A DNA stretch of 64,000 nt from Euglena gracilis. Its lineage: Eukaryota. Location of the stretch: the NCBI GenBank assembly GCA_039621445.1, contig CP154954.1:43565847-43629846 (forward strand), written 5' to 3'. The position numbers were made by a program, and so were the translations under genes. Of the stretch, positions 9,145-39,547 are shown piece after piece. The notes beneath the pieces were generated by a model that was not told where the DNA came from, made no database searches, and saw only the letters and a program-made list of their open reading frames with translations. The first letter of the stretch is position 1. Every line of letters starts with the position of its first letter.

Positions 9145-9225
9145 ATGCTGGACCTTTTCTGTGGTACCAAGTCGGTGGGCCAAGCATACAAAAAAATGGG
9201 GTTTCAGGTTGGTGACAGTGGACCT
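9145..9225 (+). pseudogene. Element B C5-cytosine methyltransferase, N-terminal part
   Basis: MLDLFCGTKSV (motif I), interrupted by element A. Confidence 0.85.
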
Positions 9226-9701
9226 TGTGAGTCAGGGGTGCTGAGTGCCCAAAACAACATAACCTAACCCAACCCAACCTGATGACTCTGCAGTTAGGAT
9301 TAGGAAAATCTTATTAAGAATTATTATCAGCTGACCCCATCTGTCCCTGCACAGGGCACTGTTTCTGTTTTTGTCTGTTTCAAGTTAAAGAATCGAATTA
9401 TCTTGGTGGCATCAATTACCATTCTTACCTGGACTTTACGTACTTTTGGTTTTGGATCGGTGTGGTGGATTTGCTGAATTGCTTGTATTGTGCTGTTGGA
9501 CTTGTGGATTTTTTTCAAAGGAAAGCCAACCAACCCACCTTTTTTCACCCAAAAAACCCGCAAAAACAAAAAGAAAATACAATTTTTGAAACAAGCCGCG
9601 AGGGGAATTGAAATCACCCTGCGCAGGGTAAAAGATCCTACGCAACGGGGTGCCGGCCCCGAGGGACTGGTAACTCCAGGGCAGGCACCACGGTTACAAC
9701 A
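9226..9701 (+). repeat. 5' LTR of element A
   Basis: Matches 38573-39045 with about 13 substitutions and one 3-bp indel by eye. Confidence 0.95.
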
Positions 9702-9713
9702 TGGTCGCAGAGG
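9702..9713 (+). promoter_or_regulatory. Primer binding site of A (initiator tRNA-Met type)
   Basis: TGGTCGCAGAGG directly after the LTR; one mismatch to TGGTAGCAGAGG of B. Confidence 0.8.
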
Positions 9714-9801
9714 TAGACTGCCCAATTTTGATTCCCCCCCAACATGCGGCTACGAACAACAAGCTTAAGAACGACCAGAAACTGAAAAAACTGACGCTAA
9801 C

Positions 9802-12800
9802 ATGCCAGCTGCCGAAACCGCCATCGCTAGGGTGGTGGAGCCGGCGGAGGGCAACTCAGCCATGTACCAAACTCTGGATGTGCCAGCTGCCTGAACCGCC
9901 ATCGCTAGGGTGGTGGAGCAGGCGGATGGTTTCCCAGCCATGAACCAAACACTGGAAATTCCAGCTGCCTTAACCGACATCGTTAGGGTAGTGGAGCCGG
10001 CAGATGGTTTTGCCGCCATGTACCAATCACTGGAAAGCAACAGGAGGACTGAAACTGAACAAGACGGCACAGACATTACAGTGCCACGGACATGCAATGA
10101 CAGCCCACGTGTCATTGCCATGGTGCACATGGACCAGGACGACACCGAACAGACCGGTCCAGCACCAGATTACACAGAACTGGACGAAAACGACGAACCG
10201 TACTTCGACGAACAGGTGTTTGCACCACAAAACTGGAACCAACAGCCAGAAACGGACACTCAGAACAACCAAAACTGGCAAACCGCAACAGCACAGCAAC
10301 CAGGAACCCAGAGTTTTGCACTGGTGGCGGTACGACAGAGCCCGGAACAACCAGACCGCCTCCAGGGTGAAACTGAAACTTCGTTCCAGGAACCTTCGTA
10401 CAGCTCGTACGAGATTCCACAGCCGGAACCACAGAACCAGAACACTGACTGGGACTGGTGGTCGAACTTTGCGTACGAAACTGGACAGCTGACCCAGGAA
10501 TTTCAACAGTTCAGACGCAAAACTGAACAGACGAACCAACAAACGGCAGAAACTCTGCAGCAGCTGCAACAAACAACAACGGAATGGGTCAGCGAACTGC
10601 ATGCAACAGTGAACAGACAGGGTGAAGCACTCATGACAGAAATAAACGGCAGACACGAAGAACAGACAACAGTGCTGGTAACAACACAGGCAAACATGGA
10701 ACAGGTGAACGTTAACCAGAACAGACTGTACCAGGAACATTTCAACGGAATGTCACAGGAGATCACAGCAATCAGGGAAATGTCTGGCTCACTGGGAGAA
10801 AACCTCAGGGAATTTCACAGTTTTCTGCAGATGGCAGGTGGAAACGCACAGAACCAGGGTGAACATCTGGTTGGTTTACTACACCGACAGCGAGAAAACG
10901 AAAAAACAACTGCAGAACTGCAACAGAGATTAGCTGTGGCAGGAGAACGGGTCGCAGGAATCACAGGCAGGCATAGTGGACGAAACTGTGGCAACAGTGT
11001 CCAGAAAAGTTGAAAACCTCAGAGGCGAAATCAGCAGTGTGGTGGAAAGAATTCAGAAGGACATGGGCAGTGAAATCGGAAATCTGGCAGGACGGGTTCA
11101 GCAGCAGGAAACAAAAACGACAACAACCATTCAAAACTGTGATTACCTGCACAAAAAACTGGTGGAACTGCAGAAAATCCCAGATCAGCAGCAGCAGATT
11201 ACACAGCTGAACGAGGAAATCGGCAGACTGAAACGACAGGTGGAAACTCTGACCTGAAACGAAGAAAAACACAAACAACGCACTGAACGCCTGAACCTGG
11301 AGCAACCTGGGTCACAGGGTGGACGAAACAGCCCAAACGACTCAAAAACTGCTGGGTGAACTACAAAAAGTGACCATTAAAACAGGAACACATGACACAT
11401 CTGAACATGCCAAATGGCTGGAAATGACATCTGCCATTGGCTCAATGACAACCAGTGTCGGTCAACTGGAAGCAAAACTGGCTGGTCTCACAGCAAAAAC
11501 TGCAGAACGGGAAACACATGACAACGGCATTTGGCAGCATTTACATTCTCTGACCACGGAACTGCAAACACAGCAGAAACGGTGGACAGAACAGCTGGTG
11601 ACCCTGGACAGAAAACTCAGTACAGTGACAAAAACGACTGAAAACCTGACCGAAAAACTGGAAAGGCAAAACACCCAGCAAATTACAACCCCCAGCCCTA
11701 GCCTGGCTGAAATACCCAAACTTTTTGAAAATCTTTGCATTTCCTCTCGCCCAGCCTGCACAGGGGCCTTCGGGCCAGAGTCAGGGGCCAGCCCCCTGGC
11801 CAGTGGGCCTCCCTCGAGGACCCAGGCTGGACAGCCAGGGGCAGCCACAACGGCCCAACGGACTGAACAACCCCCCCAGGGGGCAGACAGGGCCGCGGGC
11901 CAACGGGGATCGGGGACCCACAACCCCAGAACCAGCCCCCGGCAGCCCTGAGGGGCCAACCCACAGGACAACACGGGACGGGGACCCCAGAACCCCACAC
12001 CTGGCAGACGGGGAGGGGGACCCCACAACCCCTGGCCCAGCCACGACCAGCCCTGAGGGGCCAGCCCGCAGGAAACCAAGGGACGGGGACCCCAGAACCC
12101 CAGGCCTGTCAAACGGGGACGGGGACCCCACAACCCCTGACAGGTATGTTCAGCCAGAGCAGCCAGCAGTGGGGGGACGAAACACCACACCCAAAAATGG
12201 AAGGAGGAGCTGCAGCACTGGGGACCGTTAACTCGGCTTCCCTGGTGGGGCAGCTCATCCAACAACAACTGAAAACTGCCTTGACACCGTTAATTGCCCA
12301 ACTGACTAGACAAACAGAACGACCGACTGCAGTCCCGATCAGCCCAGCACTTACGACAAACCCGACAAGCCCAGCACCACAGCCAACCCAGCCGACTCAA
12401 CAGCCAGTGACGACACAACAAAACCCACAGTCCCGGACTCGGGGCTTGTTCATGTGGGCAGACGAAACCGAAACTCAGAACACAGCCACAACAACCTGGG
12501 TGGGACCCCAGATGGGGTCTACCCAAACTGCCATCCACCACATAGGAGAGGAAACAGTGGTGGCACCCGTGGCAACGGCCCCGGCAGCATCCTTCGGGCT
12601 GCTGCTGGGTCCAGTGGGCGCGGCGATGACAAAAGACCTGGTAAGACCAACACTGCAGGGGAATTTCGCAGATTTTGCCGTTAAATTTCCAATGTACCTG
12701 CAACGTGTGTCAGCCGGTCAGGGGTCCCTGACCGACGACCTGAAACTGTCACTGCTGGAGGGCAGCCTGGACAGTGCCAGCAAACTGGAACTACAACGCG

Positions 12801-14005
12801 GACAGGAACGCGGTGAGAAAAAAAAATACCAGGAATTTTGGAACTGGATGTGCCAGAAATACGGTGGAGACACACAATCAGCCATCAAAGACGAACTGAA
12901 AAACCTGAGACCAAAAACGGAAGGAAAACTGACACTGGAAGCGTGGAGGGATTTTGAGGCCCATTTCAAACTCCTCTACAGCAGGCTGGAAAATCCATCA
13001 GAGGAAGACGCTTACAACCTGGAGGCCGAAAAGATGCCTGAAACGCAACGCAGAAGCTGCATCAGGGAACAGGCCCGCAGAAATCAGGACAGACCGACAC
13101 TGAAACTGAAAGGGGTCACAAACATTAAAAACGTCCCAGATGCAACAACGGAAGACGTTCGTGACCTGGTGGCAGCAACAGTGGGCACAGGTGAAAATTT
13201 TCAGGTGGCACGAGACGGACAAAACTTCAGGATCCAACTGCACAGCAGCAGAGCTGCTGAACTGCTCCTGATGAAAAACGGTTCAACGTTGCTGACTGGA
13301 CACAAACCACAGTTCACGCAGGTGCAAGCCAAACTCACATTGGCCGAACTGTTCCAACGGGTGGAAACCGAACTCAGGTGCCAGCAACAGTCAGACTCCC
13401 TGGGTAGGGGGTACAACGGCTGGCAGAACCAACCTCGTGAAAACAGATCACGGTCGATGGACCGCAGCGGTTACGTCAGGGAAGTCAAGGAGGAGGAGAA
13501 AACAAAATCCAGAAGTCGGACACCACCTTCCAGATCCCGACCCAACTCCCCTGGACCTCGAACCCCAACACCTGAAAAACCCAGACCCCCTTCTCCACGC
13601 CAGCCGGTGGCCATGGCAGTTTCAGAACAGCCTGGCCAGGGACGGTACACAAACTGGTCAGACTGGGGACAGAACGACTGGGGCAAAGGCAAAGGAAAGG
13701 GGAAAGGTCAAAGCTGGGGTTCAACCCAAAACTGGAACCAGAACCAGAACTGGAATCAGAATTACGGCAAAGGCTACGATTCAGGAAAGGGATACAACTC
13801 TGGGAAAGGATACGATTCTGGGAAGGGGAGCGGGAAAGGAAAAGGTAAAGGGCAGCCACAGCCACAGCCAGCAGCAACGAAAACTGAACCACAGCCACAG
13901 CAAACCAATTCACAGGAGCCAGCCAACCAGCCACAGGGACAGCCAAAGGCAGAAGCATCTTCCAGCAATCGCTGGCAGCCAGTTCAAAACGCAGAACGGA
14001 AGTGA
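9802..14005 (+). pseudogene. gag: Element A gag (very long, coiled-coil N-half, fragmented)
   Basis: Consecutive + strand ORFs 9910-11013, 10976-11257, 11319-11951, 12146-14005, homologous to B gag. The true start is uncertain. Confidence 0.8.
9805..10035. repeat. 3 x 78-bp coding tandem repeat at A gag start
   Basis: CCAGCTGCC... units at 9805, 9883 and 9961. Confidence 0.8.
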
Positions 14006-14239
14006 AGGGGGTGCGGCCTGAGGGTAGGGGACGAGAGGGGCGACTCTCTGCAGACACAACCGAAACAACAAAACAAAACAAGGGAACCAGGTCCAGAGCC
14101 GCAGCGGTCATACACACTGGGTAAGGGATGTAAGAAAAAACCCCAAAAGAAAAACATCCTGACAAAAAAACGACTCCACAGCCCAGAACCGAAAAGGGAA
14201 CAAGTCAGCTACAGGTTCGGCAGAGCAGCTTCACGGTGG

Positions 14240-14750
14240 GTGTCTGAAAACTACCACGTGAAGGAAGAAAAAATGACAGAAATTCTCTCACACTTCGGGG
14301 TCCAACCCCAGCTGGATGCCTTTGCAACCAAAAAAAACAAAAGATTCCCGCAATGGTGGGGATCGGACAGCCCAGATGGAACTGACGCCTTTGAAAAAAA
14401 CTGGCACGGAAAACTGCTGTGGATGAACCCCCCATTCAGCAAAATTTCACAGGTGGTGAAGAAAATCCAAACAGACGAGGCCCACGCACTTCTCATGGTA
14501 CCAAGATGGGTCCACAGAAAATGGTACAGGGAAATCAAAAAGCTGGCCGTGATATCAATGTTCATCCCAGCAGGAACAAAACTGTTTGGACAGGGTGACA
14601 AGAACTGCAGGAATACACCGTGGTCTGTGGAAGTGTTTTTGGTATGCGGACACAAAACACGGTGCAAGTACCTACCAGGTTTCCACAAACATTTCACCCC
14701 CCTACACCCGACATCCAAGGTGAGGTTCGGCACAGCCCATGAATACCCGC
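14240..14750 (+). CDS. Element A Dam-like N6-adenine DNA methyltransferase domain (pol frame, uninterrupted)
   Basis: QPQLDAFA...DAFEKNW..LLWMNPPFS...LLMVPRW. Confidence 0.88.
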
Positions 14751-14887
14751 CAGCGGAGGACGAGGTGGAGGGTGGTGAACAAAAAACCGACTTGGGGACG
14801 GAAAAACCACAGAAACACACCAGAAAACTGCAGGAGCCAGCCACAGCGACTCCAGAACGGGCCATTGCAGAAAAACCAAAACCACAA

Positions 14888-14969
14888 ATGCTGGACCTGT
14901 TCTGTGGAACAAAATCGGTCAGCAAGGTGTATGAAAAAATGGGTTTCCAGGCGGTGACGGTGGACTCAG
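14888..14969 (+). pseudogene. Element A C5-cytosine methyltransferase, N-terminal part
   Basis: MLDLFCGTKSV...VTVDS in frame with the Dam domain; cut by element C. Confidence 0.88.
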
Positions 14970-14971
14970 AG

Positions 14972-15395
14972 TGTACGTCCAAAGCTTTCCCTTTTCCCCT
15001 TTTTGGAACTTTCTGTAAAAGCCTTTCGCTTTCGCCTTGGTGCGCAGCCTACTTATGGTAGGGAAAAGTCTTTGGAGTAACGAAAAGTGGTTTTCCCCTT
15101 TTCTTCCCAATTCCCCAAGAAGCAAAGCACAAAGCAATGTCTCAGAAGTTTCTTCTGAGTTCAGTCTTGATTGTTCCAAGGGTTTTTCCCTCTGACAAAA
15201 CCAATGGTGAAACTTGGAATTGATGACAGTAAAGAATACCACCTGTGGGGGAAGGAGAGAAAAGTGCTGACGTGTCCAGGGGCAGATCCCAGAAGGGTCT
15301 GCCACGATCTTACCAGCTGTGGTTCCACAGTGGTGCGACCGTCACAGAACCCACTCTGCAGATATCCTACAGAGCTGGGACGTGCCTGGTACACA
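14972..15395 (-). repeat. 3' LTR of element C
   Basis: TG..CA; adjacent PPT GGGAGGGGGA (- strand, 15396-15405). Confidence 0.95.
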
Positions 15396-16796
15396 TCCCC
15401 CTCCCAGGGCTACGCCCGATTTCCTTCATGGACCAGGGTTTCCCAGTCCAGTCAGGATATCTGACGCTGCCCCAGGTGGGGTTCACTTCTCCATTCGGTG
15501 TCTCTCCTTTCCGCACAGTGGCATCCACCCAAAGCCCAAAAACGCGCAAAAGGTTAGCCGCGTTTCGCGGTTACCTATTAGCCGTTTCGGCTTAGGTGGG
15601 GTGTGAAAAAGCCCACTGTGGGAAACGGGGCTTGGCAGGTTTCCTGACAAAGTGTCCCATCCACCCACTTTGGGTGTGCCAAAGGCACGCGGGGTTGGTC
15701 AAGCGATTCGCTGAAAACCCGAGGGGAGAGGTGTGGAAGGGGGGCAGGCTCCTATCCTGGTCATACCCGGATAGGGCTCCTAGGCGGTCATATCCGCACT
15801 AGGAAACAAAAGCCTACTTACAAAACCGACTGCCGGCGACAGCTTTGCGGGGGTGGGGGGAAAGTAGAGAGGAGAGGGGGGCTGGCTTAGGCCAGAACAG
15901 AATTTTTGCTGTCTGGCAGCCTTAAGGGCCTTAGGGCCGAAAAGTGACAAGTTGGCCTATTATTACGGCGTGCGCGCTGTTTGCTGTGTGTCACTTAGCG
16001 GCTTGCCAGGTTTCCCGGCTGCCAAGGTATTCACAGCAGTAGCTCCTTCACGACGCAATAAGAGGCGATTACCTCTCGCAGACGGTTTCCGTCCGCATGG
16101 CCATTGGCAGAGGGGCAGGTGGCAGGGGGGGGGGGCTCTTGGATGCTTCCATCCAGAGCGTAGAGTGACACAGACCCAGGTTCATCCCAGGGCTGTTTAG
16201 CGATTTCCGCTACCATTGTATATATATATATAGGATATGGATGTCCAGGCTCCATGAAGGCACTTACCTTACATGAGCCTGGGAATGCCGTTTCGGCATT
16301 ACATCCGTTCCAGCCGCCAATAATCATGGCGGGAGTCCAAGGGATCTTCCACAAGGACCATCTGGAATTGTGGTGGTGGTGGCCTATCTACGAGCCAGGT
16401 TTCTGGCGATTCGTATTCGAAATCAGGTGCCACCCAGTCCCGAACCCATCCTTCGGGGACTGTGTGCTTGGTTGCACTCGCTCTTTCCGCGAGGAACCAT
16501 TGCAGCTTCTCCCAGAATTTCCTGGGTAGAGTGGCTGGCCAGATGAAGTAGTTCATCCTTGGGTGATTGGCTGACACCTGCGGGGCATTCCCCGGGTGGA
16601 AGTCAATCGGCATGTGATAGGCGCATTCCGCCCGGACTGTATGGGGTCGTAATACGGCCCCAAGCCAGTCTTTCCAGGTCATCCCGTGGCTTTCGGGTGG
16701 CCATTGTGGCAGGCACCAGCGACCGTTTCGGTCCTGGTTTTGGAACAGGCGGAAAAGTATCTTTTCCCTGTCTGCTGTTTCCCAGAGGTAAGGTAA

Positions 16797-19700
16797 TCAT
16801 ACCCCTGCCTCCTCAGCAGCGAGGCGTATCGCCCCACTGTCGATCTGCCACCCACGGGCCATTCCCGTGTGGCGGTAGTCGTCGAGCTTGAGGTTGGCAT
16901 ACTTGAAAAAGTCCTTGAACGTTTTGTTCAAGGTGGAGTATTCCTCCAGTGGCTTCTCGGCACTTGGCACGATTGTGCGTACTGCGCCTTCCGCAGTGTG
17001 CCAAAAGGTACCTCGAAGGCAGTTGACGCAGAGAACTGGTACATTCGTACCGTCTCGGTCTGTGTAGCTGAAATTGTGCTTGTGGGTCCAACTGTCCACG
17101 CACTTGGCGCATACCAAGGCGGCACAGTTAGGGATGTATACATCCTTGTGGAACGATTTCCGATCCACAGGGTTGCACACATGGACGAGGGGTAATCCCA
17201 GGTCAAGTGCCCTGTTGTACATCTTGTGGCATACAGTGCAAAGCCACACAAAACGGTTTTCCGTTGTTTTGTCGATGAGGAATTCCTCACCGAAGAATTG
17301 GGCCAAAACACGGGGAGATCTGGAATTGTAATAATTCCAGGTCACATTCTGATCAAAGGACCATTTCCGTCCCTGACAGAACAGTGGTTCAATCCACCGG
17401 TTAAGGCATTGCTGTGTCCTCAATTTATGTGTAATCATCATGTACCTGTTTTTCAGGTCATGAATGTCAGGGTCATCCTGATTGATCGCGTTCCAGTCGA
17501 TGACAACTTCGTCTTCTGAAGGTGTCTCGGCTGTCGAGGCGCGGGATTTTCCCTGCCCCTTTGTCGGAGGTTTCGGCTGTGAGGTTTTCCCATAGCCGGA
17601 TGACGTGACATGCGTGAATCCTTGTCCCGAGGTTAATCCCCGAGAAGAGGATGCAGCACTCTGGCCGCCAGCACCACCACCGCCTTTCGGTGGGGGCTGA
17701 TCACCAGATTTCGGTGTGGGTTTGCAAGGTGCGGCGCCCGGTTTACTTTTCGCCGGGGCCTTCGGGCTTCCGGTTTCCGGAGTCTCCGAGGGTCGCCGCT
17801 CGGCGTCTCGTTTGCTTGCCCACGTGCGTGGTGACGCTTGGGACGGGGGTCTTTTCCCCGACGCCGAACGTCGTTGACCTTCAGCAGGGGTTTCCCGAGC
17901 TGATGGTCGTCCTACACGCTCCTTCGCGGCTCCCGAAGGTTTCCCAGGGGTAGCCGTGGGGGATGGTGTTGGTGTAGGCCTAGCCTGTGCACTTCGCGCT
18001 GGCTGAGCCTGTGGTGGAGGCATGGACGCCCGCTCGGCCTGTTTTTCAGACGCCGGTGTCCATGTGCCTTGACGCTTCTCTGCCGTGACTGTGGCTGTAC
18101 CGTGAGATACGGGTTCATCCCGTGCCTCCGGTGGTACCGCCGGTGTCGATACAGGATCATCCTGTACTGACACGGCTGGTGTTGTCTCCACAGTCATTGC
18201 CGTCTGTACGCCTTCCGTCCGTGTCGCTTCCGACACTGGCGGTGGCGCTGCCGTTGGGGGAGGTTCATCCTCCACCATGGCTGCAGATGTGTCTTCCGTC
18301 AGCTGGGCAGTTTCCGCCGCAGCTGTGGAAGAACTGGCCGCAGTGCCACGTGGAGTGACTACTGCGATCAGTGACCGTAAACCACCGAGTACGCGTCCGC
18401 CTAGTGAGGTGCGTCTCTCCTCACCTGAAGTGGGCTCCTCGGCTGGCTCTTCTGTTGACGGGGCTTCCCCGGAAACAGGGAGCTTGAGGCGTAATACCTC
18501 AGGCGTGTGGGGTACCGTTTCCGGCGGGTTTTCCCGCGGAGGGGTTGGTACACCCGCTGTACCCAGTGAGGCTGGTGATAGAGGGACAGGTGTCATTTCA
18601 CCTGCTTGTGATCCTGGGTGTTGGGCGGTTTCTGCCACAGTATCCAGCATCACTACCGATGGGCTACGGGTTTCCCGTGCCGGAGGTTCCGTTGGCTGAG
18701 GTTCATCCTCAGCCATGGGGACCTCCTCCTCCTCCTCGTCCGCTTCCGGAGAGGATTCGGCTGCGTGTAGCTGTGCTGCAGAACGCGGGTCTTTCCCGCT
18801 CCTGTAGCACCCTTGTGCGTTTGACAGGCGGAAAAAGCTAATACTTTCACTCCTGTCAGAGTTCGGGTATGGGGGTGGCCACGTCGCTCTCACCCAGCTT
18901 TCGGGTGGAGGTTGTGGTTGATCATCGTCGATCAAGCAAAGGTCTTCCCACTGCCGTCGACAATGGTCAGTCACGCCAAACTCTCCTGTTTCTTCCAGGA
19001 ATGCTGGCAGTGGCAACGCGTAACGAGGGACTTCCCCTTCGTGCGCCGCGAAAAACATCTGAAAATCCTCCCATATCAGGATATTCCCGAATTGGGTATC
19101 CAGGTGTTCTTGGAGACCTATTTCGGCCTCTTCCCAGTCTGGTCGTAGGTTCATCCTGCGCTGGTCTGGGTCATTGGGTCTGGCGTTCACCTCCATATAT
19201 CCCCGCGGCAACCACTTTCTGTGGATTTCCACATCGGCGGTCATATATTCCAGGAAATATATGTAGACCTCTAGGACGTAGGTAATCCACGCCCTGTGCC
19301 AGTACTGCTGCAGCAGAAATATTTTCTGCCGGTGCTGTTTCAGCACCTTTCGGTCTTGCGTTCCAATCCGGGGATTCCGGCACTGATGCAGGAGGAATCT
19401 CCTGGTCGGCTGGCTGCCGGCATTCTCGGCAGACGGAGGCGGTTTTCCGCGTTCTCCGAAACCCCAGAAGTCAACGATGTGGACTTCCTTGCAAAACTGG
19501 CATTCCAGTTTGTACCGCTGGGGGTACGCGAGGTCCACGTCCAATACCTTGAACAGCATGCCATACATGCTGTCCAAGAAGACTTGGAGGTTGTTCGTGA
19601 ACATTACCGCAGCCGGTGCCTGGAGTTTCTCCGGCAGGGGGTAATACTTCCACTGGATTCCCAGTGCGCTGACTGAAAACATGTGGTTGAAGATTTCCTT

Positions 19701-20717
19701 CAACTGTGCAACGAACGTTTCGCCGTCTTCACAGGTATTCAGGCAATCGGTATACGTCAGACCGTTTCGGTCGGTAAAAATGCCGAAATTCTGGCAGGGG
19801 TATCCCAACCAGAACCACAATTCCCAGAAACCAGGCATCTGGTCCAGGACAACTTCATTCGAATGAGGGTATCCCTCGAACGCATGAAGTTCGGCACTGT
19901 AGAAAAAACGTTTGCAGTGATCGTTCATACGATTCTGCACCACTTCGAGCACCGCATCCGGTGGTCGGTGGATCACGTTGCCTGCCCTTGTGAACTTTAG
20001 GAGATCTTCGTCGATTTTCGGCCAGATCTCCTCCAGGTACTTGAACACTGAGGCAACGTCATAATCCTTCGTTTTCGAAGGTTCGGCGGCTTTCCCGCCC
20101 TTACCTGCTGGGGGTCCGGCAGATTTTCCGCCTTTGCCTGGAGCTGACCAGGCGGCTTTTCCACCTTTGCCAGGTGGGGCTTTCCCACCTTTCTCCTGGC
20201 CTTTTCCTTTCCCCTTACCTTTACCCTTTCCTTTACCCTTGCCCTTTGTGTTTGACAGCCATTCGAATGTCGCCCGGTATGGGTCAAAGTATTCCCAGTA
20301 TTCTGGGTCTTCTGGCGTAAACACTGGGTAAGTCACGGATTCCGTGCTTGGCGTCCGAGCAAATTCCTGCTCAGCATCACCACGATTCGAGTAAACCGGT
20401 GCGACTGGGGATGGTCGGGTTTCCCGACGTGCCCGTTCTGCCGTCACGTCTGGCGCTGGCGGAGCTTCCTCCTCAGCGTCGACATGCATCGCCGCGGGCG
20501 GATTTTCCGACCTCGGCGAGCGGCGCTGTGGCTGCGGCGTCAGATTTTCCGGGCCGCGGTCACGCTTGCCGGCGGCAGAACTTGTGGGCCGTGCTAGAGG
20601 CGCTTCCGCCACAGCAACGTCCTGCTGTCGCGCTGGTTGACTTGATCGTGATGGAGCTGGGACTCCTGTGAGAGCCGACACAGCAGCATCATACTGCTGG
20701 CGCTCTTCCCGTGTCAT
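16797..20717 (-). CDS. Element C accessory protein, 1306 aa, unknown function, Cys-rich (RING/PHD-like) C-terminus
   Basis: Long uninterrupted ORF with two globular-looking regions, a GKGKGK tract and CTVC..HVC..CAALVCAKC..CVNC. Confidence 0.8.
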   Translation of the reverse strand: MTREERQQYDAAVSALTGVPAPSRSSQPARQQDVAVAEAPLARPTSSAAGKRDRGPENLTPQPQRRSPRSENPPAAMHVDAEEEAPPAPDVTAERARRETRPSPVAPVYSNRGDAEQEFARTPSTESVTYPVFTPEDPEYWEYFDPYRATFEWLSNTKGKGKGKGKGKGKGKGQEKGGKAPPGKGGKAAWSAPGKGGKSAGPPAGKGGKAAEPSKTKDYDVASVFKYLEEIWPKIDEDLLKFTRAGNVIHRPPDAVLEVVQNRMNDHCKRFFYSAELHAFEGYPHSNEVVLDQMPGFWELWFWLGYPCQNFGIFTDRNGLTYTDCLNTCEDGETFVAQLKEIFNHMFSVSALGIQWKYYPLPEKLQAPAAVMFTNNLQVFLDSMYGMLFKVLDVDLAYPQRYKLECQFCKEVHIVDFWGFGERGKPPPSAENAGSQPTRRFLLHQCRNPRIGTQDRKVLKQHRQKIFLLQQYWHRAWITYVLEVYIYFLEYMTADVEIHRKWLPRGYMEVNARPNDPDQRRMNLRPDWEEAEIGLQEHLDTQFGNILIWEDFQMFFAAHEGEVPRYALPLPAFLEETGEFGVTDHCRRQWEDLCLIDDDQPQPPPESWVRATWPPPYPNSDRSESISFFRLSNAQGCYRSGKDPRSAAQLHAAESSPEADEEEEEVPMAEDEPQPTEPPARETRSPSVVMLDTVAETAQHPGSQAGEMTPVPLSPASLGTAGVPTPPRENPPETVPHTPEVLRLKLPVSGEAPSTEEPAEEPTSGEERRTSLGGRVLGGLRSLIAVVTPRGTAASSSTAAAETAQLTEDTSAAMVEDEPPPTAAPPPVSEATRTEGVQTAMTVETTPAVSVQDDPVSTPAVPPEARDEPVSHGTATVTAEKRQGTWTPASEKQAERASMPPPQAQPARSAQARPTPTPSPTATPGKPSGAAKERVGRPSARETPAEGQRRSASGKRPPSQASPRTWASKRDAERRPSETPETGSPKAPAKSKPGAAPCKPTPKSGDQPPPKGGGGAGGQSAASSSRGLTSGQGFTHVTSSGYGKTSQPKPPTKGQGKSRASTAETPSEDEVVIDWNAINQDDPDIHDLKNRYMMITHKLRTQQCLNRWIEPLFCQGRKWSFDQNVTWNYYNSRSPRVLAQFFGEEFLIDKTTENRFVWLCTVCHKMYNRALDLGLPLVHVCNPVDRKSFHKDVYIPNCAALVCAKCVDSWTHKHNFSYTDRDGTNVPVLCVNCLRGTFWHTAEGAVRTIVPSAEKPLEEYSTLNKTFKDFFKYANLKLDDYRHTGMARGWQIDSGAIRLAAEEAGV

Positions 20718-21736: not shown

Positions 21737-21898
21737 ATTACCGCCCGGGGACGGTACGGTAGGATGTTGGGGTTGTTGGTTGTAAGGTGTGTGAGGGTAA
21801 CCGCTTGAGTATTATTTGCTAAAAAGTCTGCGGAAAGAAAGAATGATAAGAATCAATGATAAAAAGAAGAGAAAACAACATGGGTTTCCCATGCGTTC

Positions 21899-26952: not shown

Positions 26953-26997
26953 CTGTTCATCAGCCCAGAGGTCCGTGCCCTCGGACCTCGGGCTCCC

Positions 26998-29900: not shown

Positions 29901-30651
29901 GATGCAAAATCCGTTGTTGGGCTTCTTGGAAAGAAGTGGTAAGTGCGGCAAAATGCTCAACCGCGACAAAGTTACCGATTTCCGGCATTTTGGGGGTGGC
30001 ATTTTGCGCTTGTAACTGCTGCTGCAATTGCAGTAGCATGGTTGAACAAGATTCCACTTTGGCAAAAAGATGGCTCATACCATCTTGCACGTGCAGAAAC
30101 TTGGAATCATTCCGCGTTTCCGCTTCATGCAGCATTTCGCTGATTTGTTGGAAATTTTGTGGAAGTTGGATGCGCAAAATACTGTCAACACTTTCTCGAA
30201 AATGCTGAAGGTCTTTCCCCGCATTTTCAAAATTGTGTTGGCAATATTTGCCGATTTCCTGCAAATAATTCCAGCAACATTCCAGTTTGGTGTTGACAAC
30301 CCTTTGATTGTCCTCATCGAACTGCAAAACTTTGTTGAGCATGGTTGCGCATTCCGCAACGCATTGGTGGACATGCAAAATTTGCTTGCTAAGCGGGTGA
30401 TCCGCTGGGAGTTGACCGAGAATTCGGTAAACATCACCGGGGGTGAGGTTATCCCTCAAATCTTCCTCATAGTCCTCCACAATGGAAACGGCACCAGAGA
30501 TTTCCGGTACCACCAGACGCATATCTGGGTTCCATGGCAATGCAGGGAAAACCGCAGCTTCCGCGGGTAATCCCGGCAATGCGCGAAGTGGTGTGGGGGG
30601 TGGTAATTGAGGGGGGGTTGGAAAAAACACGGTGTTTCCACCGAGTTGCAC
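26998..30651 (-). CDS. gag: Element C gag, 1217 aa, coiled-coil N-half, two CCHC zinc knuckles
   Basis: CFLCNKSGHMSREC and CSLCGSKDHHASKC; WDGDP..W..F capsid-like motif; lies upstream of protease. Confidence 0.9.
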   Translation of the reverse strand: MQLGGNTVFFPTPPQLPPPTPLRALPGLPAEAAVFPALPWNPDMRLVVPEISGAVSIVEDYEEDLRDNLTPGDVYRILGQLPADHPLSKQILHVHQCVAECATMLNKVLQFDEDNQRVVNTKLECCWNYLQEIGKYCQHNFENAGKDLQHFRESVDSILRIQLPQNFQQISEMLHEAETRNDSKFLHVQDGMSHLFAKVESCSTMLLQLQQQLQAQNATPKMPEIGNFVAVEHFAALTTSFQEAQQRILHLGSEIEHLKQFQMKVQENFVPRTQIQLLEERISHLEQKSCHCAANQDGLTTLNAKIADCAQRLDFTQQQMQTDIGGINATVVGLQEHVSALSKRIPDISGIQAAIGELQTRCTLLSTTVTEIRSLPPISRARISESPEFRSFYDKVLGDNKETLQAFCTSLLQIEESVNRNARSMQDEVSRLDGRISALLEKPTAENSRTTVETPTKSLHQLQTVSNAVKALAGQLRNVEESQGNLAQELHLVSEKLPHLEDFSRYRKRIRHLETEVDRICGQLQLVEHLEETVHDLSASLDKMSTPVPVVPPSTAVSAAVGIPNVPESRSQITISGVGIPTSTANLVQPPAKTRIVPPLHLPTPQTHSSHDISDEEIDPPLENSSLHQEIQHSNLVRGMSQHPTPGIGHVSHSRSYQPPTGSGLPNHPSGFRRETRPTGRISPNFSQIPQENPANLTLGAGNPARVTHGAENPRNAFGVKNYPDPNPWNTTEGQRVTQRDFKGTIAIANKVKPQWDGDPTTWRQFFRDWEYYWALKGPTQDPNPEVVKMEFIDCLPREERERARNLVIRNGVSFDDLVEQYASTNSSLVTRITLEKKWRQSAPSDRKWKSIDLWYAKWLALASEVDELSEKQMREQFDAVLLHFTPSLVKDIHREELAGHEMTLAQRWNYVSKQLKLTQVLGQIQSAFQTHPTAGIPAGAVNALQKSPMSPRSPTTGPKTRNQRSSDQGTDKLCFLCNKSGHMSRECPNPDARKRIGSPRGSTSSRGSGSSAFSRQSGVSRSSENRFSGSRPKSPSRDGRETRPSRGRSPGPPARKRDFNRDSSRSRSRSGSSSSRESTGKTRYTGHGRRETRSPRRFDGRTEYRSPRYAESRHKSRCSLCGSKDHHASKCPRSRSPRPGYGNRGKRRDDRGYSSNRQKVGFKISCLEEDTPASGREGDETSDGEFNEARMAVRSLNSIYSTKKSVAGYAAGSDLE

Positions 30652-31373
30652 TCCAAAAGGCCCACCGGTGCTTCCACCGGGGATCTTTTGGGTGTGAACA
30701 GAGCAAAGGGCAAATACCCCTCACTTTGTTCATGGGTAACATGAGTAACCAAGTGTGAGGGTGCAAGGGGTTCATCCCCTCGCCGCATCAATGATGGGTG
30801 AATCGGGATGGAGGAAGGCATTTTGCCACCTACATCCCGCACAATCAATGACAATGATGATGAAGAGGGTTCATTACCCCCATGCAACAATAAAGGCGTT
30901 TCGCCTTTTGACAATGACAAATGAGTCAAATTGCCTTCTTCTTGCTTGGGGGGTCGGGAATTGGAACTTGTTTCATTCAAACCGTTCCAATCCCCGCAAT
31001 CTTCATCACAATTGCTCAATGAACTCATCAACAAGTCATAATCAAATTTGGGGTTGGGGCTTGTGCTCTGCATCTTTTGAGATGGGTAAAAAGGCAAAAA
31101 CCCAAAAATTCACACAAATAAGCAGAGAAACAGGGACCAGAAAGGTTGTATCGGCGATTACCGAACAGAGCCTTCTGAGACCTGTATCCTTGCTTAAAGG
31201 TTGGCTAGGGGCCAGGAACAGTACTTTCACCGTGTTTCACGGCTCAGTACGATCCTCACCACCAGTCAACCGCAGAGTTTCTCTGTGTGGAACGTCTGTG
31301 TGGGATCGTTGCCTAAATCTGCTACCAAGTGTATTACCTGGTAGCCTTTCTTTCTGTAGGATCTTTGACCTAT

Positions 31374-31383
31374 TCTGCTACCA
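31374..31383 (-). promoter_or_regulatory. Primer binding site of C (initiator tRNA-Met type)
   Basis: TGGTAGCAGA, 2 nt after the 5' LTR on the - strand. Confidence 0.85.
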
Positions 31384-31385
31384 AG

Positions 31386-31809
31386 TGTACGTCCAAAGCT
31401 TTCCCTTTTCCCCTTTTTGGAACTTTCTGTAAAAGCCTTTCGCTTTCGCCTTGGTGCGCAGCCTACTTATGGTAGGGAAAAGTCTTTGGAGTAACGAAAA
31501 GTGGTTTTCCCCTTTTCTTCCCAATTCCCCAAGAAGCAAAGCACAAAGCAATGTCTCAGAAGTTTCTTCTGAGTTCAGTCTTGATTGTTCCGAGGGTTTT
31601 TCCCTCTGACAAAACCAATGGTGAAACTTGGAATTGATGACAGTAAAGAATACCACCTGTGGGGGAAGGAGAGAAAAGTGCTGACGTGTCCAGGGGCAGA
31701 TCCCAGAATGGTCTGCCACGATCTTACCAGCTGTGGTTCCACAGTGGTGCGACCGTCACAGAACCCACTCTGCAGATATCCTACAGAGCTGGGACGTGCC
31801 TGGTACACA
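31386..31809 (-). repeat. 5' LTR of element C
   Basis: Near-identical to 14972-15395. Confidence 0.95.
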
Positions 31810-32330
31810 CTCAGACCCCAGGTGGAAAGCGGATTACCAGGTGGACGTACTGGACTGGGACTTCAGAAAACATTTCAAACCTGGCGAATTCCACACGGTG
31901 GTTTGTGGAGTTCCCTGCACAGAATTCAGCATTGCCCTGACGACAAGACCCAGAAACCTGGAAAAGGGAGACAGCCTTGCAAAGAAAGCCCTGGAAATTG
32001 TGGAATTTCTGCAGCCGCAGAAATGGTGGTTGGAAAACCCAAGGTACGGATACCTGGGAAAACGAGATTACATGAAACCGTACCCGTACATTGACGTGGG
32101 TTACTGTCAATACACAGACTGGGGCTACAAAAAACCAACACGAATCTGGGGGAGCCCTGACATCCTGCAGGTACCAGCAAAACGGTGTGACGGAAAAACC
32201 TGCAAAAACCTGGACCCGAACGGTGGTGGTCACCTGGTGAAACTCAGCAACAAACACAACAGTCCAGCCTTCAAAAAATTCAGGATCCCAGAACAACTGA
32301 TTCAGGACCTGGCGGGGTGCCACGAACGGC
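31810..32330 (+). pseudogene. Element A C5-cytosine methyltransferase, catalytic part
   Basis: CGVPCTEFS (motif IV, catalytic PC), WWLENP (motif VI), YKKPTRIW; in frame with the downstream protease and RT. Confidence 0.88.
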
Positions 32331-32489
32331 TACGGCAAACCAGCCAAGCCCAGGCCGTGCAGCAACAACCGCTGCAGCAGCCCAGCCCTGCCCAGACTGC
32401 ACGACAAAACATGCTCTCACAGCCCAGCCCAGAACTGACAGGTCAACAGCCAAACCCAGATTCAACTGACAAAACAGAACCAGACCAAA

Positions 32490-35400
32490 ACATTCGGCTT
32501 CCAAAACGACTGTGTGAACCGGTGGCCAAACTCCTGCTGGGGCAGGTCATCAGCAGAAAGAAAGCAAAACAACTCCTCATCGAAGTCCGTGCTGTGTTGC
32601 CGGATAGCAAAAAAATGTTCCTACAGGCCCTGATTGACCCGGAAGCACAGGCAAACCTGGTGAAAAAGAACCTGATTCCCCAACAAAACTTCAGACGTTC
32701 ACAAAAACCCTTGGCCCTGATCACAGCAGACGGAACAAGGATGGAAGGAGGACTACACGAAGTCACACTGGAACTGCAGTTTTCATCACGGGTGCACAAC
32801 ACGGACAGAACAAGGGAATGGTCCACCATTGGAACGTTCCATGACGCCGACATCCAAGTGGATGCCATCCTCGGGTCTCCGTGGATGGAACAACACCAAC
32901 TGGGGGTTTTCCCACACCTACAATCATTGGCCCTCATAGGTGAACCACTGCGGCTGCTGTCCAGTTGGCACCAGCTGAAGGAACAAAAGCACAGGGAACG
33001 GAAAATACACCAACTTCAGAAAAAGATTTCGGCAGTGCGGGCAATTAATTTGCAGATTCCTGCTGAAGCGGGCCAGGACGAGGAAAAACTGTTTGAAGAC
33101 GAAACAACACTGGAAACACTGGCAAAACAACTTCAGAAATCGGCAAAGAAATCTGACAGGGTTCACGGTGTTGTGGTGGTGCCAGAAGGACAGGAAACAC
33201 AAGGCGAAAGGGTGGCTGAACTGGTGAAAAAACTGCGGCAGGACTGTGAAGGAGTGGTCTTGCGAGACAAAATTTACCCAGACCCCCCAGAACGCGGACC
33301 ACTGGGTTATGGGAAAATCGAACTGAAACCTGGAACAGTGGCGAAAAAGCAAAGACCCATCCACATGACAGGAGAACGCCGACAGGCACTCATCGACATG
33401 GTGGACGAATGGGTTAGGGACCTGAAAGTGGAAGACGGGAGGAGTGACTGGTCCAGCCCCACGTTCGTGGTGGCCAAAAAGGGTGGAAAATGGAGAGGGG
33501 TGGTGGATTTCAGAGCACTGAACGAGGCAACAATCACAGACGCCCATCCCCTCCCTAGGATAGAAGACATCCTATTTCAACAAGGACAACGGGCCCTGTA
33601 CTGGACCTCAAAGACGCCTTCCACCAGGTGCCACTGAGAACAGAGTCCAGACCCTACACCTGCTGCAGCACACCTAAGGGAACAAAACAGTGGAGAGTGG
33701 TGGTCATGGGGATGAAAAACGGTGTACCGATTTTCCAGAGGGTGATCGAGTACAGCCTGGAGGAGGTACAGGATATTGCAAATCCCTACGTGGACGACAT
33801 AATCGTAGGAACCGTATGGCAGGGGTCAGAAGAAAAAACCCTCGAACAACACGACAAGGACATCAGAAGGGTGATGGAGGCACTGAAAAAACAGCAGCAC
33901 GTGGCAGACATTAAGAAATGCAAATTTTTCGTGAAATAGGTGGAATTCTGTCGACACGTGCTGGGTGGTGGACAACGAAAACCAGCACCAGGCAAACTGA
34001 TGGCCTTGGAAAAATGGGAGGAACCCAAAACGGTCACAGCCCTGCGGGCATTCCTGGGATTCACAAACTACTACGCCTCATACATCCCAGGGTACGCAGA
34101 ATTGGCAGCAGACCTAATGGAGAAACTGAAGGTGAAAAAGGGACAGGGGAAGAAAGGACGCCTGACACCTGTGTTTTTCGGTGAAACGGAACGAACAGCT
34201 TTTCAGACTATCAAAGAAAAACTGCTGGGAAGCCTGAAACTGCAAACGGTGAACCCAGACAAACCGTTCATACTCAGGGTGGATGCAAGTGGCAGAGCCG
34301 TGGGTGCGGCTCTGGAACAATTTGCGGAGGACACTGCAGAAAAACCAGACCCAACAACAGCCATGACCGAAAACACAGTACCCGTAGCTTTCTGTTCACC
34401 AAAACTGACACCTGGGCAGGTTCGCTCGTGGTCTCCTAGGGAGAAGGAGACCTACGCAGTGATCCTGGCCATGCAAAAATGGGCTTCCTGGATAGGAAGG
34501 CAACCGGTTCTGGTGTTGACGGACCACAAGTCCATTGAGGCGTGGGCAACGGAGGCGCTGGACACCCCCAGTGGACCACCTGGACGTAGGGCTAGGTGGC
34601 ACGAACTGCTTTTGCGGTTCGACATAACTGTTGCATACGTACCTGGCAAAGACAACACGGTCGCCGATGCCTTGAGTAGGTGGGCCTACCCCGCCTCACA
34701 GGCATTCGCCGACGTGAGTATCCACGGGAGTGAGGAGGACGACCGACTCATGAAAGAAATCATCAAACAGGAGGAAAAGGAACAGAAAACTTGTATGGTG
34801 ATCAACGTGGCAGACCTGACACAGGCACAAAAACAACTTCAAGAACCCGTCACTGTGGCCGTCACAACAAGGGGGGGAGCCAAAACGGGTGAAGATTCGC
34901 CCACAGTGCCTGGTTCAACGGAAAACGGTGACACCCCTCAAAAAAATTCAAAGCCACCTCAAAAACCTGCAAAAACGACAAAGAAATGGGTTGTGAAGGA
35001 AACAACTGTGGTGAAACCAAGCAAAAAACTGGCAGGGGCAACCCCAAGGGAGACCACGGAGGCAGGAAACCTGGGCTCCGCCGGAAACCTGATCCGACCA
35101 GACCAACCAAAAAACAAAACCCCAGAAAATTAAAACACGGCCGAGGGACCATCCACTGAGGAAGACCCACCAAGGCGAAGACCCCTGGAAGAGGACCCTG
35201 TGGAACCCCTAACAACAACAGACACAACAAAACAACAGGACGCGCAAGGTGCGTCATCCTCAACGGGGACACCCGTTGGACCTCCATCAAGGGGAGTGCA
35301 CGCCCCGGAGCTTCAACAGGGGGAACCGAAAGGGGTGATGGACAGGGAATGGAAGAACGAGTACGAAAGTTGCCCAAGGTGGGGACCTGTGCTCAAGGAC

Positions 35401-36816
35401 CTGAAGGGAACGGGGTTCAAAAACTGGCCTGACAGGTACCGATTCGACAACGGCAGGCTCTACAAAAACGGACTCCTGTGTGTACCAAGTGGGTTGACTG
35501 GAAACGTAATTCGGGAACATCACGAAACAGCCGGGCACCCAGGGTCAGCCCGACTGTGGGACCAGATGGGAAGGTGGTTTGCATTTGCGGACCACCAGGA
35601 TGCAAAAAAACTGACAGGCAAAATGATGACCATGTGTGAAACCTGCCAAGCAACAGAACCCAGCCACTTACCATACAAGTGCCCCATTCAACCGACACCG
35701 ATTCCTGCACACCTGATGGACAGTGTTGCTATCGACTTGTTCTCTCTACCTGAAACCACCTTTGAAGGGAAAAAATACGACACGTTGGCGTTGTGTGTAG
35801 ACAGGCTGAGTGGGTGGATGGTTGCAACCCCCCACCTGGCCAAGGGACTCACAGCAGAAAGGGTTGGAAAGGAAATGTACAAACAGTGGGGAATTTTTGG
35901 GATACCCTCGGTGGTGAGCTCCGACCGGGGCTCCCACTTCACAGCCGGTTGGTGGAAAACACTGTGTGCTGCCCACGGGGTCCGTGTGGCGTACAGGCAG
36001 GCATACCACCACCAAGCCAACGGACGGGCTGAGGTAGCGGGTCAACAAGTCCTCCGAAAACTGGCAAAACTGGCTGCTGAAAAAGGGGTACCCTGGGTTG
36101 AACTCCTACCGAACGCCTTGAGGGCCCTACACGACGTCCCAGGTGAAACGGGATTGTCACCGTACGAAATTGTGTTTGGCAGGCACTGACCGTTGGCAGG
36201 ATTGCCATACCAACCACAAAAGGAAGCGGAAGGGGCCACAACGTTCATGGAAAGGATGAAAGAACAAGACCAGTGGGTGAGCCTGGTCCTGAACGAAAAA
36301 CAGCGTGAACGAGCTGAAACGGTGAACCAAAAACACAGAGAACCACCTGCCTTGGAAATCGGTTCCAAAGTCTGGTATCAACCCGAAAGACAACCCGGTA
36401 CCGACAAACTCGAACCGAAGTGGAAAGGACCTGCGGTGGCGTTGGAACGGGTTGGACAACACTCCTACGTGGTTGAACTACGACCTGGAAACCGACAACC
36501 TGCCCACCGTTCACAACTCAAACCCCACGTGGAGGACCTCTACAACGCAACCCCTGTTCCCCTCTACTTTTGGTCGGGCAAGGCACAGGAGTTGGAGGTC
36601 GGACCTGACGAATGGGAGGTTGACAAAGTGCTGAACCACCGCAGAAAAGACGGAAAACTTCAATTTTTGATTCAGTGGAAAAACTGGGACCCGTCTGACA
36701 CTCAGTGGGAACCCCTGAACCACTTCTTCCTCCGAACGAACAAGGATGTGGTCCAATATTGCAAGAAACGGGACCTGGCTGTGGATGTGAGAGAGTTTCT
36801 CGATGGGATGGAGTGA
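32490..36816 (+). pseudogene. pol: Element A pol: protease, RT, RNase H, integrase, chromodomain
   Basis: LIDPEA (degenerate protease site), WRGVVDFR, YVDD, VDAS, TDH, SDRG, WKGP, EWEVDKVL..QWEP. Frameshift near 33600; stops at 33937 and 36187. Confidence 0.93.
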
Positions 36817-38518
36817 CACATGTCGCATACCGCTGCACTCTCTCACAGATGCCGCCACGTCGCCACCCCCAACGACCCCGTCGCCAACCCCAACCCTACC
36901 ACCCACACCAACCTCGACCAGTCCCCTTCACCATCCCCACCATACTACCCCCACCCCTGCGTGCCCTTGAGGCGCAACTTCCTTCCCCCCTATGCCTCCG
37001 AACTTCAACACCAACGCAAACGAGGCCACCCCCACCACCATACCGCCCCCCACCGCCATACCAACCCCCACGACAACCCTCACCTCAACCCCATCACGAG
37101 CCCCCACATGCACCCCCACAGCGGAGCCCCAGACCGAACCCCCCACAGCCGGAGCCACCGAGCCCTCCGCGGCGGCGGAGACGCTCAGTCTGCTCCAGCC
37201 CGGGCAGTTTCCGTGGGGTATCGCTGCCCCTGGACAGCCCCCCCGCAACACCCCCCCACAGCCCACGACCCCCCTCACCGCAACCCAAGGCCCCCTCCAG
37301 CCCCGACACCCCTACCAAGAAGCAGTGGTGGGTGGAGGAGTTGCTGGGCTTGTAAACGGTGACCCCCCCTGCAAGGCGCGGGTGCCCCCACGGGCCCCGT
37401 CTGTATACTCAGAGCCTTGCGGTGGGACCCGAAAACATTTGACAAACCTGAAATGGATTTCACGACCGAACTTCCGAGCTGGTTTACAACCTTAACCTCT
37501 AAACCTCTATCGACTTGGATCGACTTGAACCTGTACACCGCTGACAAAACCCGCCTGACTCAAAAACGACAAAACGGGCCTGGGCAGCCCCCCCTGGCCA
37601 GCCCACCTGAACCGGAACCGCTGGCCAGCCCAACTCGAACCAGCCCAACGGACCTGAACAAGACCCGACCCGACCGGAATTCACTGACCTGAAGTGCCTC
37701 TCTTCTGCCAATCAACCCATTCTTCTATTCTTCATCCTTGTTGTTGTGGGTTGGGACCCCCCCGTGAAGAACGAACCTTCCCCCCCGGACCTGGCCAGCC
37801 TACCTGTAAAAAAAAAACACAGCCCCCAACCCCAACCGTGGCAGCCAGCCAAAACTGGGCAAACGGTGGAAGGGGAACCTGATTTTGACCCAAAAACGCA
37901 GACCTGGCCGACCCCGGGGGACCGGCCTGGGGGGGGGGGCGAGGATCCTCCACGGCACCTGACCTCGCACAAACCAGCCTACCCCCCAGAAAAAAATTCA
38001 AAAAAACAAAAAAACATTGTCCTTGACCCAGCCGGATTTTTAACCAAAAACCCAGCCTTCACCTGATTTTTATTAAAATTCGTCCCCGGCCGGACCTTGA
38101 CCGCTTTGCCTGGGGGGGGGGGGGGTTGGAAGACCCCAGCTGGACCCACCCCCCACCGAACAGACACCAAGCCTAGACACCGAATTGGCTAACCGAACAG
38201 AAAACGGCTGTCTAGGACCCTGACCGTGACAAAACAACTCACCTGGCCTGAGAATAAAAATTTCCGGAAAATTTAACCATGGCTGGCGCTTGGTTCACAA
38301 CGGCGCCTGCCCCCCCCCCCAACGACAAACAGCCCTAGGCGGGCTGGGGGGGGGGGACAACACACCAGACCCCGCACAGACCCAACTGTCAAAGGAGAAC
38401 ACTTGACTCAGCCCACCCGCCATAAAACGAACCTGAACGGCACAGCCCCCTGGGGGGGGGGGGCTGAACCACAACGGTCCCCTCGCTCGCCCCCTCCTCA
38501 CAACGAGTGCACTCCGCA

Positions 38519-38572
38519 CCCCTTCCTGTTGGAGTCGTGAAGAGTTGTAAACAACTCCTTCAGGAAGGGGAG
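38519..38572 (+). promoter_or_regulatory. Polypurine tract of A within a predicted stem-loop
   Basis: AGGAAGGGGAG directly before the 3' LTR; complementary arm at 38519-38535. Confidence 0.8.
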
Positions 38573-39045
38573 TGTGAGTCAGGGGTGCTGAGTGCCCAAA
38601 ACAACATAACCTAACCCAACCCAACCTGATGCCTCTGCAGTTAGGATTAGGAAAATCTTATTAGGAATTATTATCAGCTGACCCCATCTCTCCCTGCACA
38701 GGGCTCTGTCTCTGTTTTTGTCTGTTTCAAGTTCAAGAATCGAATTATCTTGGTGGCATCAATTATCATTACCTGGACTTTACGTACTTTTGGTTTTGGA
38801 TCGGTGTGGTGGATTTGCTGAATTGCTTGTATTGTGCTGTTGGACTTGTGGATTTTTTTAAAAGGAAAGCCAACCAACCCACCTGTTTTCACCCAAAAAA
38901 CCCGCAAAAACAAAAAGAAAATGCAATTTTTGAAACAAGCCGCGAGGGGAATTGAAATAACCCTGGGCAGGGTAAAAGATCCTACGCAACGGGGTGCCGG
39001 CCCCGAGGGACTGGAAACTCCAGGGCAGGCACCACGGTTACAACA
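38573..39045 (+). repeat. 3' LTR of element A
   Basis: TG..CA repeat of 9226-9701, followed by TSD ACCT. Confidence 0.95.
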
Positions 39046-39545
39046 ACCTGGACCCCAAGTGGCAGGCAGATTTTCAGGTGGATGCCTTGACGTGGGACTA
39101 CAAGAAAGTTCTGAAGCCTGGGGAATTCCACACGGTGGTCTGTGGGGTTCCGTGCACGGAATTCAGCCTGGCACTCACAACCAGACCAAGACAGCTGGAG
39201 AAGGGGGACGCATTGGCAAAAAAGGCCCTGGAGATCGTGAAATTTATGCGACCGCAGAAATGGTGGCTGGAAAATCCCAGACATGGGTACCTCAGACACA
39301 GGGAGTACATGAAACCATATCCATTTGTTGATTTGGATTATTGTCAATACTCCGACTGGGGGTACAAAAAGCCAACACGAATCTGGGGCAGCCCAGATAT
39401 CCTGCAAGTGCAGGGAAAGCTGTGTGACGGGAGAACATGTCCCAACCTGATCCCAGGGAAGAAGGGTCACCGGGTGAAAATCTCCAACACGACGAGTATT
39501 CCCAGAAACAAAGTATCAAATTCCAGAAGGACTGATCCAAGTTTT
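39046..39545 (+). pseudogene. Element B C5-cytosine methyltransferase, catalytic part
   Basis: LDPKW..CGVPCTEFS..WWLENPR..DYCQY..YKKPTRIW. Confidence 0.88.
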
Positions 39546-39547
39546 GG

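Follow-up and report, generated by a model that had tools for sequence, protein, structure and literature searches.

The stretch of Euglena gracilis DNA analysed here, a window of 64,000 nucleotides (contig CP154954.1, positions 43,565,847 to 43,629,846), holds three long terminal repeat (LTR) retrotransposons nested in one another. Element A sits in the cytosine methyltransferase (DNMT) gene of element B, element C sits in the DNMT gene of element A, and the two insertions hit the same codon of the gene. The sequence-only reading had reported this coincidence, and it is borne out by the junctions, which were read directly: the duplications ACCT and CTCAG start 1 nt apart. The site in the DNMT gene may be an integration hot spot common to A and C, a reading to which we give an even chance.

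Both breaks interrupt the C5 cytosine methyltransferase domain within its homologous stretch VTVD|xDP(R/K)W. The site in B reads GTGACAGTGG[ACCT]GGACCCCAAGTGG and the site in A reads GTGACGGTGGA[CTCAG]ACCCCAGGTGG, the bracketed letters being the target-site duplications (TSDs), whose starts were compared in homologous coordinates. As the motif coordinates in A and in B confirm, each insertion parts motif I (LDLFCGT) from the catalytic PC (GVPCTEFS), which had also been claimed from the letters alone. If insertion into the 12,975 bp of A (its length minus C and one duplication) is taken as uniform, the chance of a match within 1 nt is about 3/12,975 = 2.3e-4, a value that is post hoc and concerns two events. 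The case for directed targeting is no more than the improbability of this n = 2. On the two strands together, the hexamer GTGGAC is present at 11 places in A and at 13 in the parts of B; a motif this short and this frequent cannot define a single site.

A and C are two genuine, independent integrase-mediated insertions with complete hallmarks: LTR pairs, TSDs, primer binding site (PBS) and polypurine tract (PPT). Element A occupies 9226-39045 on the plus strand, inside element B, as delimited by self-BLAST and by direct reading of the left junction (...GGTGACAGTGG ACCT|TGTGAGTCAGG) and the right junction (...GGTTACAACA|ACCT GGACCCCAAGTGG). It starts with TGTGAG and ends with ACAACA, and its 4-bp TSD, ACCT, was read at 9222-9225 and 39046-39049. 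The 5' LTR (9226-9701, TG...CA, 476 bp) is followed by the PBS TGGTCGCAGAGG from 9702, and the 3' LTR (38573-39045, 473 bp) is preceded by the PPT AGGAAGGGGAG, which ends at 38572. The two copies differ by 13 mismatches and 3 gap columns.

Element C is 16,840 bp long, has intact open reading frames (ORFs) and lies on the minus strand at 14970-31809, inside element A. Its junctions, also read directly, are ...GGTGACGGTGGA CTCAG|AGTGTACG on the left and ...GGTACACA|CTCAG ACCCCAGGTGG on the right. The TSD CTCAG (14965-14969 and 31810-31814) is 5 bp long, one ambiguous A also permitting a 6-bp reading, CTCAGA. The LTRs (14970-15395 and 31384-31809, 426 bp), the other pair given by self-BLAST, differ by 2 mismatches, and in the reverse complement the PBS TGGTAGCAGAA is found just inside 31383 and the PPT GGGAGGGGGA at 15396-15405. 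A and C differ in their stagger (4 vs. 5 bp) and inserted in opposite orientations. An A-type element entered an older, B-type relative, and the young C then entered that copy of A; this nesting order agrees with the identities of the LTR pairs (96.6% for A and 99.5% for C).

Element A is a Ty3/gypsy chromovirus: paired LTRs, TSD, PBS, PPT, the order of pol and a chromodomain are all present. All its features lie on the plus strand. The gag-region ORFs (9895-14005, namely 9895-11013 and 11867-14005) are followed by a Dam-like N6-adenine methyltransferase domain at 14279-14575 (PF05869, 32.5 bits for a cutoff of 28.1; NPPF at 14426-14437). The left half of the DNMT spans 14891-14969, with motif I, LDLFCGT, at 14891-14911 and VTVD at 14954-14965; the right half spans 31815-32400, with DPRW at its start, GVPCTEFS at 31907-31930, ENP at 32030-32041 and PTRIW at 32135-32149. 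The region of the protease, reverse transcriptase (RT), RNase H and integrase (32400-36813) holds in-frame stops. RNase H, rve and Chromo were found there in successive ORFs, and the RT by tblastn with the pol of element C. The C-terminus of the integrase carries a chromodomain at ~36613-36717 (Pfam Chromo, E = 3.7e-10). A shortened form of A also exists: one contig in each of two sequencing runs, X1 and X2, skips 820 bases (13318-14137, between the gag ORF and the Dam-like domain), with 2 other letters in their place. The A family thus has a deletion derivative in two samples.

LTR retrotransposons with DAM, DNMT and chromodomain are described as EpiLTRs in the accessible text of a preprint on Euglena gracilis and Cymbomonas tetramitiformis (bioRxiv 10.64898/2026.05.21.726589). 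Element A, in which a Dam-like domain, a C5-DNMT and a chromodomain are predicted together on a Ty3/gypsy backbone, is on this sequence evidence an EpiLTR. Element B resembles EpiLTRs in its Dam-like and DNMT remnants and its Ty3/gypsy pol, the comparison being limited to these features. In A and B the DNMT stands upstream of the protease and RT, whereas the DNMT of the Cymbomonas EpiLTR, as far as that text describes it, is placed at the 3' end of pol. The placement in A and B fits the Euglena EpiLTR form that the same text calls 'structurally distinct'.

Element C is likewise a Ty3/gypsy chromovirus, complete with LTR pair, TSD, PBS, PPT, pol order and chromodomain. Read on the minus strand, it contains gag with CCHC (26998-30720), a Dam-like region (25285-25518), RT (24278-24790), RNase H (23648-23995), integrase (22688-22981) and chromodomain (21980-22087). 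RVT_1, RT_RNaseH, rve and Chromo (E = 4.6e-10) were identified by Pfam within one ORF. The Dam-like match is weak (18.5 bits), tblastn to the Dam region of A giving E = 9e-13, and no DNMT was detected in C by domain and tblastn searches; for these two reasons C is not regarded as an EpiLTR. Its identity with A is 38-41% in RT/RNase H and 26-27% in the integrase, values that place C in a chromodomain lineage distinct from A. The sequence-only reading, which had proposed two different lineages in opposite orientation, was therefore right about C, the minus-strand element. After pol, C has two long intact ORFs, 20714-21811 (365 aa) and 16797-20795 (1,332 aa), also on the minus strand. Beyond trivial weak matches, they gave no Pfam family at E <= 0.5, and this stretch (16797-21811) is an unexplained cargo of the 16.8-kb element.

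Element B is an older, frameshifted relative of element A, with 69-77% DNA identity to it. Its left part (5745-9225, plus strand) comprises three pieces: gag, in which there is a CCHC knuckle; a Dam-like domain, whose NPPF lies at 8718-8729; and motif I of the DNMT, at 9148-9168. This part is decayed, with several frameshifts, and stops at the insertion of A. The right half of the DNMT resumes at 39046-39560 on the same strand with LDPKW, the PC motif GVPCTEFS at 39144-39167 and ENP at 39267-39278. It is followed on the plus strand by pol (RT, RNase H and integrase), a proline-rich ORF and an LTR (39560-46448, the LTR at 45755-46448). The LTRs of A and B share a 25-nt start; no match to this start was found in prokaryote contigs or in viral contigs (0 in each). 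One extra nucleotide ~13 nt upstream of the site, private to this copy of B, shifts the local frame, which reads VGDSGP, not VTVD. The extra base, at 9209, is missing from other B-family contigs (4 in X1, 3 in X2 and 1 in a further run, X20).

The interrupted domain is supported as a C5 cytosine DNA methyltransferase by sequence motifs and by a predicted structure, and its activity is likewise a prediction. A public A-family protein of 544 aa, P0001, is 90% identical and uninterrupted; across the site it reads ...GFDVVTVDSDPRWKADYQ..., ...MGFDVVTVDSDPRWKADYQ.... By tblastn, P0001 is 55% identical to 8532-9225 of element B. Taken alone, the right half of the DNMT in the window scores 17.4 bits with PF00145, for a cutoff of 22, and the intact P0001 lies just over that cutoff (22.6 bits, E = 8.1e-5). 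The stretches LDLFCGT(K/G)S, (V/P)PCTE(F/Y)S, ENP and K(P/R)TR(I)W are kept across an alignment of 29 sequences; we take them to be the C5-methyltransferase motifs I (FxGxG-like), IV (PC), VI (ENV) and VIII (RxR). The AlphaFold2 model of P0001, residues 211-410, has a predicted local distance difference test score (pLDDT) of ~72-98, mostly above 88. In the PDB, Foldseek returned DNMT3A as the best match to this model (2qrv_E, E = 7e-8), followed by DNMT1, DNMT3B, DIM2 and M.HaeIII. In the model, the place of insertion is where the second strand, beta-2 (residues 237-242), ends, at the acidic residue of motif II (VTVD). A PDB sequence search gave no meaningful match, and a search of the ESM Atlas no usable one.

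Outside retroelements, this DNMT has its nearest relatives among compact stand-alone methylases of ~200 aa, encoded on marine and freshwater metagenome contigs, with 31-38% identity. One of these stand-alone relatives (loci L001-L041; proteins P0018-P0023) is named a site-specific DNA-cytosine methylase by its source, and two loci, L011 and L035, have two copies each. Locus L001, with 55% identity over the DNMT region, runs on into a protease region and may be a related retroelement.

The surroundings of element B are rich in repeats. No 5' LTR of B was found in the window. The LTR at 45755-46448, of which a copy lies near 55850-56560, has a PPT, GGGAAGGGGAG, before it and a PBS and leader homologous to those of A, TGGTAGCAGAGG..., after it. 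Flanked in this way, it serves both as the 3' LTR of B and as the 5' LTR of a downstream element, which is the pattern of LTR-LTR recombination or of a tandem element array. A tandem duplication of ~10 kb (40571-50648 and 50647-61086, 97-98% identity) spans the RT-to-LTR part of B and ~4 kb of downstream sequence. Indels in low-complexity stretches make its offsets vary from 9,965 to 10,438 bp. Just upstream of the gag of B, two direct repeats of 358 bp (2326-2682 and 5080-5437, 96% identity) start with TGTGCGCAG; the second copy is preceded by a PPT-like run, and no matching TSD was seen. An ORF that begins within the first copy (2525-3784) has no Pfam match. The ORF 47247-47927 had the look of a recombinase by eye, a candidate that was dropped when Pfam gave nothing. 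On the minus strand, the ORF 62358-63422 encodes a CCCH zinc finger (PF00642, E = 1.8e-8); it is possibly a fragment of a host gene that borders this repeat-rich region.

A hot spot shared by A and C is favoured because two insertions reached the same site, within 1 nt, in a target of 12,975 bp, for which the chance is ~2.3e-4. Since the integrases are distinct, the stagger different and the strands opposite, a property of the target is more likely than a sequence-reading integrase common to both. The chromodomains on the two integrases could act as a tether to silenced copies of abundant elements. Such copies might offer only a few usable positions, those that are exposed or bendable, as could be the case next to a bound factor or on a nucleosome whose position the sequence dictates. 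In this way, two integrases that are unrelated could arrive at the same place with a different stagger and in opposite orientation.

Several observations weigh against a shared hot spot. There are only two events, the case was picked because it looked surprising, and the mechanism, whether by nucleosome or by bound factor, is pure inference. Other copies of the site were surveyed in sequencing runs, as short-read contigs only, in which LTR flanks are not listed and depth figures are not copy numbers. Sequence words of 9000-15500 occur in runs of 14 studies and three organisms, and the contigs of four runs (including X1, X2, X16 and X20) were aligned to 8300-15400. The A and C families proved highly repeated, with 18,641 contig pieces in X1 and 15,503 in X2 over these 7.1 kb. 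The A-family site is uninterrupted, continuing as CCCCAGGTGGAAAG..., in 9 contigs of X1 and 8 of X2, and one X16 contig of 2,600 nt reads straight through it; empty sites are hence present in at least two organisms. The outer end of the C LTR enters sequence other than the DNMT flank in 49 contigs of X1 and 48 of X2, so the flanks of C show no sign of being dominated by DNMT. The PBS side of the other LTR forms the end of these contigs' consensus, whose agreement is only 0.46 in X1 and 0.44 in X2. Among proteins, a search for shorter ones gave 28 matches, of which 23 were examined (P0026-P0029 are among those left out): none of these 23 homologues breaks at the site, and 19 of them span it. 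Among the 41 metagenome loci (31-55% identity) found by a profile scan with the DNMT alignment, 38 cross the site unbroken and the other three begin downstream of it. A third insertion at the site was found neither in the contig runs nor in the protein, metagenome, viral and prokaryote collections.

The relatives in the public protein and contig collections all belong to other organisms, and the 41 metagenome loci reveal little about A and C; these loci include no copy of A, B or C, and none is split at the site. The same DNMT alignment found no relative in viral contigs. A protein search with the left ORF of A and its LTR-coded tail returned only two matches, neither of them with the tail. 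Two proteins were considered as possible breaks, P0007, which starts 2 residues before the site, and P0002, which ends ~4 before VTVD; both were set aside as noise because fragment ends are scattered throughout the domain. In X20, a run of the third organism, three contigs match the DNMT of A up to 14964 and then continue with an unrelated sequence that the window does not contain (30-letter consensus, agreement 0.63). This break may stem from a DNMT copy that has diverged or from another insertion at the same place, and it is not counted as evidence.

Coincidence, in which both insertions are real and fell in the same codon by chance, is quite possible, at somewhat less than an even chance, as the families are extremely abundant and nesting is common. 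There are two events, and in families so highly repeated nested insertions must be numerous; moreover, no further case at the site turned up in anything searched, empty sites were easily found, and a large scan selects surprising windows. What speaks against chance is the per-pair probability of ~2.3e-4, with both events in one locus. In addition, among 1,491 nested plant LTR pairs, recurrent nests at similar positions were always at least 50 bp apart according to the accessible text of that survey (PMC6911290), so a codon-level coincidence is not commonplace. Sequence-specific homing would mean that the conserved DNA encoding DNMT motif II is recognised, either by the integrases or by an accessory domain (Dam-like or DNMT, for example), with thousands of DNMT-bearing elements as a landing pad. 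The 1-nt precision would suit such recognition, and few coding stretches of the domain are as conserved as the one that holds the site, which would make the site a stable, multi-copy target. However, the integrases are only 26-27% identical, their staggers differ and their orientations are opposite; C has no detected DNMT, the C-LTR flanks in contigs are not dominated by DNMT sequence, and uninterrupted sites are common. We therefore regard homing as unlikely. A dedicated landing pad at the motif-II codon, to which two or more unrelated chromodomain-integrase lineages home, is improbable as well, if a shade less so. It would be reached with nucleotide precision via structure or a bound protein and not by integrases that read the sequence, thousands of DNMT-bearing elements would offer a safe harbour, and each hit would disable the DNMT of a rival, in an inter-element warfare over the epigenetic toolkit.

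Two further explanations carry very little weight. If insertions landed anywhere and copies with a knocked-out DNMT were preferentially kept, both insertions would qualify, as each is predicted to inactivate the DNMT by parting motif I from the PC. Yet an insertion at any of several hundred places in the ~600-nt domain would have the same effect, and selection has no power to produce a precision of 1 nt, as the sequence-only reading had already argued. In addition, B and A were probably dead or silenced already, with frameshifts in B and in-frame stops in A, and we consider selection extremely improbable. A chimeric join of repeats by the assembler is highly unlikely too. The families are of very high copy number and the 10-kb tandem duplication adjoins the nest, but no assembler makes duplications that match and have an LTR end at either side, and the coding frame runs exactly across both empty sites, in agreement with the intact P0001.

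Directed integration of LTR elements, by a tether or a motif, is known for Ty3 at the start sites of RNA polymerase III, for Ty1 and Tf1, for the Drosophila gypsy group and for the chromodomain of chromoviruses. Nucleotide-level hot spots are established for the tethered elements Ty3, Ty1 and Tf1. A and C resemble these systems in having a chromodomain tether; the site selectivity proposed here is a candidate only. We know of no nucleotide-level LTR target that is a gene of another retrotransposon, and the literature search brought up neither recurrent nesting at the level of a codon nor a DNMT gene as target.

Nesting in plants offers the closest comparison for the arrangement, as Ty3/gypsy elements nest there inside other LTR elements. 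In the accessible text on those nests, plant Ty3/gypsy elements show a regional preference (3' untranslated region and inter-domain stretches) with coding domains under-used, and nesting sites have weak palindrome and nucleosome-occupancy signals (PMC6911290). In comparison with the plant spacing, A and C are inserted 1 nt apart, and inside a catalytic domain. Cytosine methyltransferases inside a retrotransposon polyprotein, as in A and B, are found in SymbioLINE-Dnmt, SymbioDIRS-Dnmt3 and KnitGypsy-Dnmt3, for which the accessible text reports dispersed insertions and no site preference (PMC5890265). Those DNMTs are, by the same text, Dnmt3-type or linked to ORF1 of long interspersed nuclear elements, whereas the DNMT of A and B is compact, with ~200 aa. 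The EpiLTR preprint, in its accessible text, makes no claim on insertion-site preference and mentions nested insertions only as a source of chimeric annotation (10.64898/2026.05.21.726589).

A nucleotide-level hot spot inside the DNMT gene of a retrotransposon would be a new form of targeted LTR integration, which two cases cannot settle. If the match is a coincidence, the window presents a clean triple nesting among Dam/DNMT-bearing chromoviruses, a class already contained in the 2026 preprint. If the shared hot spot is real, it would be the first nucleotide-level target of LTR retrotransposons inside a gene of another retrotransposon, and one common to unrelated integrases. It would provide a way to study how chromodomain integrases choose their sites within heterochromatin, and it would show that mobile elements compete over their own DNA-methylation genes.

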